Virus record (IMG/VR): IMGVR_UViG_2703718824_000007
Location: 1 to 4,548 of that record
DNA from: a virus
Lineage: Duplodnaviria; Heunggongvirae; Uroviricota; Caudoviricetes
Length of the DNA stretch: 4,548 nt
Strand: one strand, 5' to 3'
Position numbers: made by a program
Part shown: piece by piece, positions 1-3,000 of the stretch
Layout of the letters: each line of letters begins with the position of its first letter
Position numbering within the stretch: the stretch's first letter is position 1

Positions 1-3000
1 CCGCACACTCGCGCAGAGGAGTCTCCCTGTCGGGCTGCGGTCTCTGTTAATACGGGAATACGGCGACAATACCGCGCCATGGATAATAAGGTCGCTCAAC
101 ACACTGGCTGTAATGCAGCGGATACCATGCGGCATTTAGCGGCATTCATCGTACACTCAACGGTTAGCTCTTCATTCGTGGCATTCACCTGAAAGGTCCG
201 GGAGTGTAATTGCGTACATTTACCACTGAACGAACCTTCAACAAGAACACGACCACGCTGCAAAATACGGAACGGAATTGTTCCCTGAAAAGGTTCTACG
301 GTTACCCGTAATTTCTTCATGTATCCTCCGGATAATAAAAAGCCAGCTTAGTGCACTGAGTGCGTATATATTCCTGCGCCCCTTCCAGCTGCTTCTGCAT
401 TGTCATCAACCGTTCTCTGAGGTTGAAATAATCCCGTTCAGCGGTGTCTGCCAGTCGGGGGCCGGTTGCATTATCCACGCCGGAGGTGCCGGTGGCTTCA
501 CGCACGGTACCGGTGCAGGTGGCGTTGATCCGCAGGCGCTTACGACCAGCGGCAATATCAGCACGCAGAGTTTCATTTTCAGCTCTCGCATCGGCTAATT
601 CCCTCGAGTATTTTGCATCGAGCGCAGCAACATCACGCTGGCGCACCTGCATGTCAGTAATGGTGGCATTCGCCTGTTCCAGCTCTCTGGCTTTTTTATC
701 GCGCTGCGCTTTGTAGGTGATGGCGTTATCGCGGTAATGATTCAGCCCCAGACTAAGCGCACCACAGACCACCAGCAGAATAACAGTAAACGCGGAAAGA
801 ATTCGGTTTATGCTCACCATGCCCCCTGTCAGAAATTGCAGATTATCAGCTCGCTGACACTGCTTGTCTTACCACGTGGTACAGTATAACGATGAGCAAC
901 ATGATGAATATTCATCCCCTCAAACAATCGTCTCATTTCCTGCGAATCGTTCAGGGATATAATCATTTTGCCTTTTATTGTGCGGGCAAGTTCTGCCATG
1001 CGCTCATAATTGCAGAATGAAAAATCAATGCCGTAACCACCATCCAACCAATACGGAGGATCGCAGTAAAACAGCGTTGTCGGGCGGTCATACCGTGCGA
1101 TACAGACCTCCCAGTCAAGGTGTTCAATAGTTGCCCGCGCCAGCCGATCACGGGCTTCCTGCAATAACTGCTCTGTATTCCCGGGGATTATCTGCGGTCT
1201 GTGAGTTTTAACTCCAAATGCCCGACTGTATGCTCTTCCGCCATACGCGCACTTCTGGATAAAAAAGAAACGGACAGCCCGCTGGATATCCGTCATGTAC
1301 TCCGTGTGCTGATTTATCACCTCATTCCACATCTCACGACTGGCGAGCATCCACTGAAACTGGCGGGAAAATTCCTCCTGGTGGTACTTCACCACACGGT
1401 AGAGATTAACGATATCACTGTTTATATCGTTGATGATTTCAGCGCAGCTCGGTTTTTTCATAAAGAACAGTGCCGCACCGCCACAGAACGGTTCCACATA
1501 CAGAGTGTGCTCAGGAAATAACGGCAGAATATGTTTTGCCAGACGACGCTTCCCTCCTAACCACGGGAGAAACGGTTTTGCAGAGTTATTATTCATTTCA
1601 CCACCAGCGGATTTCCCGGATTAGAACCGCAATTGCCACAATGCGAATGGCAAATGCCGTTGCCCGAATAAATTCAGTACTCATCTGTTTAAATAAATTG
1701 TCGTCATCAGTCACTGTCACCCCACCAGCCCTGCCGAAGTCAACGCCATCCAGGCTATGGAAAGAAAAAGAGCAACCATCATTAGCGAAAATGAAACGCC
1801 GACAATCACACAGATGGTCTTCGCCAGCGTTATGAGTTTGCCTGATATCATTAGACGCCACTCCATCAATCCGTCTTTGTGATTTTTCCTTTGCCTGTAT
1901 CAGCCAGGACAAAACCAATCAGCAGATTCGCTTCGTTTATCAACGTGCGAATTTTTGATACATGCGCGGCTTTAACCAGTTTCCATTCGTTTAACCCTGT
2001 ACCAAACAGACTGGCAATGTTTTTATCCCGTTTCATGTCAGCGCATGCCTGGTTGAGTTCTTCCATCACGCTCATTTGACGAGGATTAACGACAAAACCC
2101 TTCGTCCAGTATTCATAGAGAACATCGTCGCACTCTTCCTGATACTGGATAACCTTGTCGCGGATTCCGGGTTTTACTTTGTTGGGATTGATGGTTTGTA
2201 ACCAGCCTGCAAGTTTTCGAAGTGGCAGGGACACCATATTGCGTCGTTTCCCGTCCTCAGCAACCATAACGATTTCCGTTATAGTTGACGCAAAACGCTG
2301 TCTTAACTTAGCCAACTGTGATTGCCAGGCCAGCCCCATCCCCGCAACGACAGGTTTCATGGGAACGTATGGTTCGCCGTTATGGTTAACCACATAAAGA
2401 GAATCGCCGTGAAACGGCACGGTTATCATATTCATCGGTTATTTCCTTTTAGTGATGAACCCTGCGCACAGGAATAACCAGCCCAAAGAGGGTTAACCAG
2501 ACCACTGCCGGTTATCCACCAGGGCTCATCCTGAAAGGTTCTTTGGTTTATTTACGCTTGTGCGAAGCGCAGAAATGACAAAGGCACCATTACGGTGCCT
2601 CTGCGTGAAATAATGATCCTGACTTTATTCACTTACATTTTGCCAGTTCGCAGGATTTCGTGTTATCCGTCCGCGTTGGCCAACGTCATTTTTCAGCAAA
2701 ATATTCTGCTTATCTGTCGATACCCCAGCATGCCAGCGCACTCTCCTGGTCGCGACGGGATACCTGACCGTAGCAATTATTTGAGCGAATACGGCAGTCT
2801 CTGCCACCGTCCTTAATCCACCAGCGAATCGCTTCGCAGGCACCTTTTCGATCGCCTGCATTAATTCGTTTATAAAACGTCGACGTGAAACACTTACCGG
2901 GGCCAATGTTGTAAGGACAGAATGACGCAATTCCCGCTTTCTGGGGTTCAGTCAGTGGCACTTTGATGTTTTTCTCCACCCATGCCAGCGCCTTATCACG

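Follow-up and report, generated by a model that had tools for sequence, protein, structure and literature searches.

An orphan Dam-family adenine methyltransferase gene ahead of the spanin genes in a lambdoid Escherichia coli prophage

Introduction

Orphan DNA methyltransferases of the Dam fold are well known in temperate phages, where they are common cargo, and the solved enzymes of this fold, Escherichia coli Dam, DpnM and T4 Dam, are all GATC-specific. Here we describe a relative of these enzymes whose sub-lineage and recognition domain are uncharacterised. It is encoded at positions 829-1596 (minus strand) of a 4,548-nucleotide stretch of DNA from a virus of the class Caudoviricetes (IMG/VR record IMGVR_UViG_2703718824_000007, positions 1 to 4,548); this whole stretch is referred to as the window and the gene as the methylase. 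Pfam, NCBIfam, the predicted fold and the DPPY motif identify the methylase as a D12-class (Dam-family) N6-adenine DNA methyltransferase. It is an orphan, with no restriction partner in the window or in the 10-20 kb flanks of related prophages.

The methylase belongs to a clade of solitary methyltransferases, 45-59% identical to it, from temperate phages and prophages of Gamma- and Betaproteobacteria. One of these, M.EcoMIV of prophage Phi2 in strain EC958, is 56% identical over the full length and is likewise a D12-class orphan on a temperate E. coli prophage; it differs in its recognition segment and in its surroundings, which are not a lambdoid lysis cassette but a transposable Mu-like prophage, where it occupies a strand of its own with the repressor region on one side and the holin on the other. 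A relative in a Mu-like Enterobacterales prophage (P0117) is also found on its own strand between repressor and holin. By position and annotation, the RefSeq locus EC958_RS05075 would be EC958_1101, the gene of M.EcoMIV. In the methylome of sequence type 131, M.EcoMIV was poorly transcribed in the lysogen and had no assignable motif, and no site was on record for its homologues of more than 65% identity (PMC4659465).

Burkholderia phiE125 gp27 and phi1026b gp26 (52.6% identical) are solitary D12 enzymes encoded beside a lysis cassette, directly after an Rz-like spanin. The phiE125 gene differs from the methylase in lying downstream of Rz, about 140 nt away, whereas the methylase lies upstream. 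The host of phiE125 is not known to have a Dam. According to a citing paper, Smith & Jeddeloh 2005 found phiE125 methylation confined to the phage episome; this is reportedly cytosine methylation and hence provides no evidence on gp27. The telomere phages VP882 and phiHAP-1 carry their relatives after tail genes, VP882 gp37 following tail gene D. ORF48 of the Pseudomonas Mu-like phage B3 (49.6% identical) is situated in the late region, behind a Com-like translational regulator that overlaps its start. Since this is the arrangement of the late anti-restriction gene mom of Mu (PMC3299994), it supports a late anti-restriction role for the clade. Upstream of the methylase no Com-like regulator was found, and the 28-amino-acid (aa) open reading frame (ORF) that precedes it has no cysteines. 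Late-region placement thus recurs in phiE125 gp27, B3 ORF48 and VP882 gp37.

Two further groups of phage enzymes invite comparison. The VT2 Dam is located in the early region of its phage. M.EcoVT2Dam and M.EcoGV are also orphan adenine methyltransferases on lambdoid prophages of Shiga toxin-producing E. coli (STEC; PMC6602927); as no phage encoding Shiga toxin (Stx) was among the top protein matches of the methylase (best phage match 57.6%), they represent a different, distant lineage. Hia5, Hin1523 and Nma1821 are phage-borne, Dam-related, divergent in their recognition domain and found in a late anti-restriction slot (PMC3299994). Membership of the methylase in this non-specific family was considered and, judged from the literature, is unsupported: the family is only remotely Dam-like, at about 15% identity to Dam-type enzymes, and B3 ORF48 lies outside its 1,000 closest matches (PMC3299994). 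In a comparative study of 279 Stx phages, a lysis-cassette methyltransferase is not mentioned.

Results

The methylase is one intact ORF of 255 aa, with the ATG at 1596-1594 and the TGA at 831-829. Its full length is covered by PF02086 (MethyltransfD12; E 8.7e-27, 94.9 bits, cutoff 22). It passes the cutoff of TIGR00571 'dam' at the borderline (115.2 against 114.85 bits), and further matches phrog_56 (E 3e-90) and, as the best PADLOC model, MTase_II PDLC03253 (E 5.7e-92); the NCBI name of the protein is already 'DNA adenine methylase'. The methylase was modeled with AlphaFold2 (predicted local distance difference test, pLDDT, 80.6; predicted template modeling score, pTM, 0.82), and the model was compared in Foldseek with E. 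coli Dam (E 1e-18, template modeling (TM) score 0.75-0.81), DpnM (TM 0.77) and T4 Dam (TM about 0.7). At 23-27% identity, these three enzymes share with the methylase the fold, the motif order, and the DPPY, NDIN and GGK motifs. Motif X is represented by WLGGK (aa 12-16), motif I by FCGGA (37-41), followed by NDIN (56-59), the recognition hairpin or loop (about 113-146) and motif IV, DPPY (179-182), so that motif I precedes the recognition domain and motif IV follows it (alpha order). DPPY (D179-Y182) is invariant in 33 clade members, and NDIN and GGK are likewise intact and invariant in the clade. The initial annotation of the window had assigned the product to the Dam family on the basis of an FxGxG followed by a DPPY. 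Its family assignment agrees with PF02086, TIGR00571, the fold and DPPY alike, and DPPY was found exactly; motif I reads FCGGA, that is FxGxA, instead.

A partner of the methylase was sought at two scales. In the window, the other ORFs have no match to nuclease, restriction or defence families in Pfam, NCBIfam, PHROGs or PADLOC, and a PADLOC scan of the remaining window ORFs for a hidden partner gave no hits, in keeping with the earlier statement that no restriction partner is evident there. The search was extended to neighbouring sequence, as had been proposed, in genomic loci that carry the methylase (numbered with the prefix L). No restriction endonuclease is called within 20 kb on either side in strain IBS28 (L001), or within 10 kb on either side at eight loci encoding the identical protein (L004-L011). 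At these nine loci, every neighbour that has a family assignment is a recognisable phage gene (Q, an N6_N4 methyltransferase, stx at one locus, a SASA esterase, lysis genes, terminase, portal, capsid and tail), and those left unassigned are small ORFs, 49-185 aa long. These prophages encode another solitary methyltransferase, of 352 aa (PF01555, N6_N4_Mtase; L001:28665-29723, L004:1884-2942), shortly after Q and before the tRNA or stx position, where Stx-type phages usually have M.EcoGI/M.EcoGII-like non-specific adenine methyltransferases.

All genes of the window lie on the minus strand, and the methylase is co-directional with the flanking genes of the lysis operon, from which it is separated by gaps of 1 nt and 8 nt. 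On its upstream side, a hydrophobic, unannotated ORF of 28 codons (1598-1684, MSTEFIRATAFAIRIVAIAVLIREIRWW) stops 1 nt before the methylase ATG, and its end, GGTGGTGA, constitutes the Shine-Dalgarno-like sequence of the methylase. On its downstream side, the TGA is followed by the 8-nt spacer CAGGGGGC (821-828), which contains a Shine-Dalgarno-like run of five G (G5), and then by the ATG of Rz (820-818). The spacer is the same in 20 of 21 methylase-bearing loci; the remaining one, L023, has T for C at a single base. Rz (317-820; PF03245, E 5e-50) is an i-spanin of 167 aa with the rare N-terminus MVSINRILSAFTVILLVVC, which accompanies the methylase cassette, and the o-spanin lipoprotein Rz1 (406-591; PF06085, E 2.6e-21) is embedded in it in the +1 frame. 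The methylase is thus immediately upstream of the spanin genes, as first described, and the Rz ribosome-binding site, which had been placed in its 3' end, is to be relocated, the G-rich run lying past the stop codon, in the spacer. From the tight packing of the 28-aa ORF stop, 1 nt, methylase, 8 nt and Rz, translation of Rz is probably coupled to that of the methylase.

A promoter upstream of the methylase or a terminator downstream of it was not detected above chance (1 promoter-like site against 5.3 expected); a weak promoter-like site at 870-842 (minus strand) lies inside the methylase 3' end, downstream of its start. RNA folding at the methylase-Rz junction gave no structure beyond shuffled controls (z -0.49). 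As there is no signal of its own for initiation or termination, the methylase would depend on late-operon transcription. Same strand, position between lysis genes and lack of such signals all agree with the placement within the late lysis operon that had been put forward.

The insertion was delineated by comparison with phages that lack the methylase. In BP-4795, the stop of a 49-aa ORF is followed by 7 nt and the Rz ATG. In PhiR5_1, a homologue of the 28-aa ORF has the end ...TGGTGGTGA, and T and the ATG of Rz come next; in the window, the identical ...TGGTGGTGA is followed by A and the ATG of the methylase, which therefore starts at the position of the Rz start. The stop of the 49-aa ORF abuts or overlaps the Rz start in the methylase-less phages. 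The S19-141 E. coli prophage has no methylase and carries the rare Rz N-terminus of the window, with the junction ...CTGGTGGGGTGAGCATAAACC, in which the TGA of the 49-aa ORF overlaps the Rz GTG. This N-terminus, (M)VSINRILSAFTVILLV, is accordingly seen with and without methylase (window 765-820; L022:3501-3554); in the form MVSINRILSAFTVILLVVC it occurs in 7 of the 5,426 complete E. coli genomes searched. In a second methylase lineage, named after P0002, the junctions read ...GGGGTGAG|GGGGATATG-[methylase]-TGACAGGGGGCATGGTGAG|CATAAACC. S19-141 and the P0002 type are set apart by a unit of about 790 bp that lies between two copies of the 6-bp direct repeat GGTGAG. This unit contains a G5 run and the methylase, then a second G5 run and an added ATG before the old Rz GTG. 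In the window, the downstream copy of GGTGAG is at 813-818 and overlaps the Rz ATG-GTG, as seen by comparing the junctions of L012 and L023 with that of L022. From these junctions, the difference may record either gain of the unit by insertion through microhomology or its subsequent loss by a deletion between the repeats.

The downstream junction is alike in all 21 methylase-bearing loci, bar single-base differences, and the upstream junction has two forms, as is usual for the mosaic gene boundaries of lambdoid phages. With conserved neighbours on either side, the slot is occupied in these 21 loci and empty in BP-4795, PhiR5_1 and S19-141. Measured against the moron definition of Hendrix as summarised in PMC2920897, the methylase shows presence and absence between conserved neighbours, and lacks a promoter and terminator of its own and a deviant composition. 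Its G+C content is 47.5%, in a range of 45.5-54.6% for the genes of the window; a foreign origin by base composition was considered and rejected on this ground. What moves between phages would be the methylase alone, as a promoter-less cassette.

The slot holds two alleles, the window type (829-1596) and the P0002 type (L012:5263-6030). They are 94-100% identical in nucleotide sequence at both ends and diverged in the middle, mainly in the recognition region. Between them, the synonymous (dS) and nonsynonymous (dN) divergences are 1.46 and 0.31 for codons 113-146, 0.44 and 0.50 for codons 183-196, just after DPPY, and 0 and 0.007 for codons 197-255. The high central dS points to an exchange of the recognition segment by recombination and away from local positive selection. 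The dN/dS of 0.27 over the whole gene and of 0.21 in the diverged recognition segment indicates that both allele forms have been under purifying selection.

Methylase DNA is present in 5 of the 5,426 complete E. coli genomes, in three at an identity of at least 99% and in two at 86%. The copy in IBS28 (L001:20829-21597), one of the former three, is annotated as a frameshifted pseudogene; the copies at L004-L011 are intact. Two complete E. coli chromosomes hold nearly the whole window (97.5-98.5% identity) in a lambda-like prophage, with the Q antiterminator region on one side and terminase and head genes on the other. A large assembly collection lists the identical protein in 1,038 of its blocks, and all eight places examined have the order ant, 49-aa ORF, methylase, Rz, one of them being a Stx-encoding prophage. 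The window allele is 100% identical in nucleotide sequence in at least seven prophage backgrounds that differ elsewhere, one of them Stx-encoding, which suggests recent spread by recombination. IMG/VR contains five identical copies; beyond these, identity does not exceed 59% in that database or in the GTDB species representatives. A search of 50,697 phage genomes gave no close copy, the best full-length protein matches being 57.6% identical. Matches to lambdoid phages, Stx-converting ones among them, cover about 59% of the window with 90-94% identity, and the methylase segment lies outside this part.

The other features of the window are given in transcription order. A DUF826 protein (4132-4404) comes first and is followed by the P21-type class II holin S (3841-4056; PF04971, E 7e-33), with which the lysis cassette starts. 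Between holin and endolysin is an ORF of 185 aa (3280-3837; phrog_1085, unknown function) that has no match in Pfam, NCBIfam or PADLOC; since this slot holds DUF1327 proteins or is empty in related prophages, it represents a variable cargo position. The endolysin R (2710-3243; PF00959, E 6.6e-25), a phage lysozyme with a hydrophobic N-terminus, is separated from the next gene by a gap of 270 nt. In this gap, positions 2578-2604 (minus strand) form a stem of 11 bp with a 5-nt loop (centroid -18.8 kcal/mol) and a T-rich stretch after it; the 71-nt segment that was folded has a minimum free energy of -22.4 kcal/mol (z -3.0 against shuffles). The stem is absent from the list of the consensus terminator scan, and could either be a terminator or mark an edge of the ant insertion. 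Next in the lysis cassette, upstream of the methylase, comes an Ant-type antirepressor with P22_AR_N and ORF11CD3 domains (1866-2435; PF10547, E 9e-45), and between it and the methylase cassette lies a conserved, membrane-like ORF of 49/50 aa (1717-1869; phrog_4906, E 5e-27). The C-terminus of Rz (...QCTKLAFYYPEDT, window 317-352) is about 12 residues longer than in BP-4795 and PhiR5_1; the extended stop overlaps the start of the last gene, an ORF of 74 aa (96-320; phrog_2571, unknown function), and homology to BP-4795 breaks at window position 353.

Discussion

We favour, at a probability of roughly 0.55, the reading that the methylase is a late-expressed solitary N6-adenine methyltransferase that would modify progeny DNA before packaging, with an anti-restriction benefit. 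According to this reading, a promoter-less methylase cassette would ride the late operon, under Q control, of an E. coli prophage of the lambdoid (Stx-phage-like) type and be silent in the lysogen; upon induction, the enzyme would be made alongside holin, endolysin and spanins, would act on replicating phage DNA ahead of packaging, and progeny would reach the next host pre-modified against restriction. The poor transcription of M.EcoMIV in its lysogen fits such late-only expression.

Several observations weigh against this reading. The loop that would bind S-adenosylmethionine, F37-C-G-G-A41, departs from a strict FxGxG, with an alanine that is nearly invariant across the clade. With one of the five copies in complete genomes frameshifted, loss of the gene is evidently tolerated. 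The G5 run precedes the Rz ATG by just 1 nt, and the idea of coupling is therefore a matter of geometry. E. coli has a Dam of its own, which would limit the protective value if the target were GATC. In the literature, no activity, target or expression was found for the methylase or for relatives above about 60% identity.

The question of the target was approached through the recognition hairpin. It was mapped with three independent alignments, by HMMER, MAFFT and hhalign, which agree; the fold search provides no residue-level alignment. The beta-hairpin of E. coli Dam (about residues 119-138) is 7 residues shorter in the methylase, K9 of Dam aligns with P11, and L122, R124 and P134 (Dam numbering) are replaced by R, Y and A, respectively. 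In the E. coli Dam-DNA structures of Horton et al. 2006, K9, L122, R124 and P134 are reportedly the residues that contact GATC. The cutoff of NF008152, the equivalog model of E. coli Dam, is not reached (69.7 against 441 bits), and it is in the hairpin that the AlphaFold2 model has its lowest confidence (residues 118-135, pLDDT below 50). Given the mismatches in the hairpin, at these four residues and with the equivalog, GATC specificity is not to be assumed from the 'Dam' label, and judged by its primary structure the methylase may have a target other than plain GATC. For the clade as a whole, no recognition site was found in the literature, including that on phiE125 gp27, VP882 and Stx-phage lysis cassettes.

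A bolder proposal, to which we give only tentative credence, is that the methylase and the whole temperate-phage clade would read a non-GATC or relaxed target by means of a shortened, exchangeable hairpin, the two alleles being two specificities generated by a segment swap. A minimal, promoter-less ORF cassette would in this proposal enter through the 6-bp microhomology at the Rz start codon and make translation of the spanin depend on its own.

Among the alternatives to a late anti-restriction enzyme, the one that survives best, and which we still regard as unlikely, is a GATC-specific phage Dam like M.EcoVT2Dam and M.EcoGV, which would top up the host Dam in rapid lytic replication, leave the progeny fully methylated and serve mismatch-repair avoidance or regulation instead of anti-restriction. 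GATC specificity has to be kept in view because every solved relative, among them the nearest structures DpnM, E. coli Dam and T4 Dam, is a GATC enzyme; the TIGR00571 'dam' cutoff is reached, and other STEC prophages carry GATC-specific Dam homologues (PMC6602927). This explanation is countered by the low NF008152 score, the proline in place of K9, the shorter hairpin and the lack of conservation at L122, R124 and P134, as well as by the two alleles, which differ precisely in the hairpin region; moreover, the provisional REBASE label for M.EcoMIV is that of an asymmetric type IIA site, none having been determined (PMC4659465).

That the methylase is inert or decaying cargo, a hitch-hiking ORF of no current function, appears improbable. 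Its rarity in complete E. coli genomes, the frameshifted copy and the existence of methylase-less phages with the same Rz N-terminus would be expected of such cargo; they are opposed by the intact state of all catalytic motifs, by the dN/dS values of both the whole gene and the diverged segment, and by the recurrence of the exact protein in 1,038 assembly blocks, with the same arrangement at every one of the eight places examined.

Lysogenic conversion, in which the enzyme would be expressed in the lysogen, methylate the host chromosome and alter host gene expression, is more improbable still. Some prophage methyltransferases reprogram their hosts, one reported example being PMC12435837, and the minus strand has a weak promoter-like site, though within the methylase 3' end (870-842). 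However, no promoter-like site lies upstream of the methylase and no terminator after it, the gene is translationally packed into the late operon, M.EcoMIV has a low transcript level and no motif in the lysogen (PMC4659465), and the Dam homologues of STEC prophages add no detectable motif in lysogens (PMC6602927). Finally, the PADLOC label 'Type II methyltransferase' and a weaker match to PD-Lambda-5_B (E 4e-18) would be compatible with a modification enzyme whose restriction or defence partner, e.g. that of a PD-Lambda-5-like system, is encoded elsewhere, which we consider very improbable, as no nuclease or defence partner is present in the window or called in the 10-20 kb flanks of related prophages and the mobile cassette consists of the methylase alone.

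The Dam-fold clade to which the methylase belongs is large, numbering thousands of copies, and a defined site for one of its members would annotate many genomes; such a site would also explain methylation that appears only after prophage induction. The two alleles offer a natural pair for mapping the specificity determinants of a short-hairpin Dam fold, and the anatomy of the insertion illustrates how a lambdoid late operon gains a promoter-less gene while the downstream lysis gene stays translatable. As some carriers are Stx-converting, methylation of the progeny could influence which hosts are open to toxin-converting phages.

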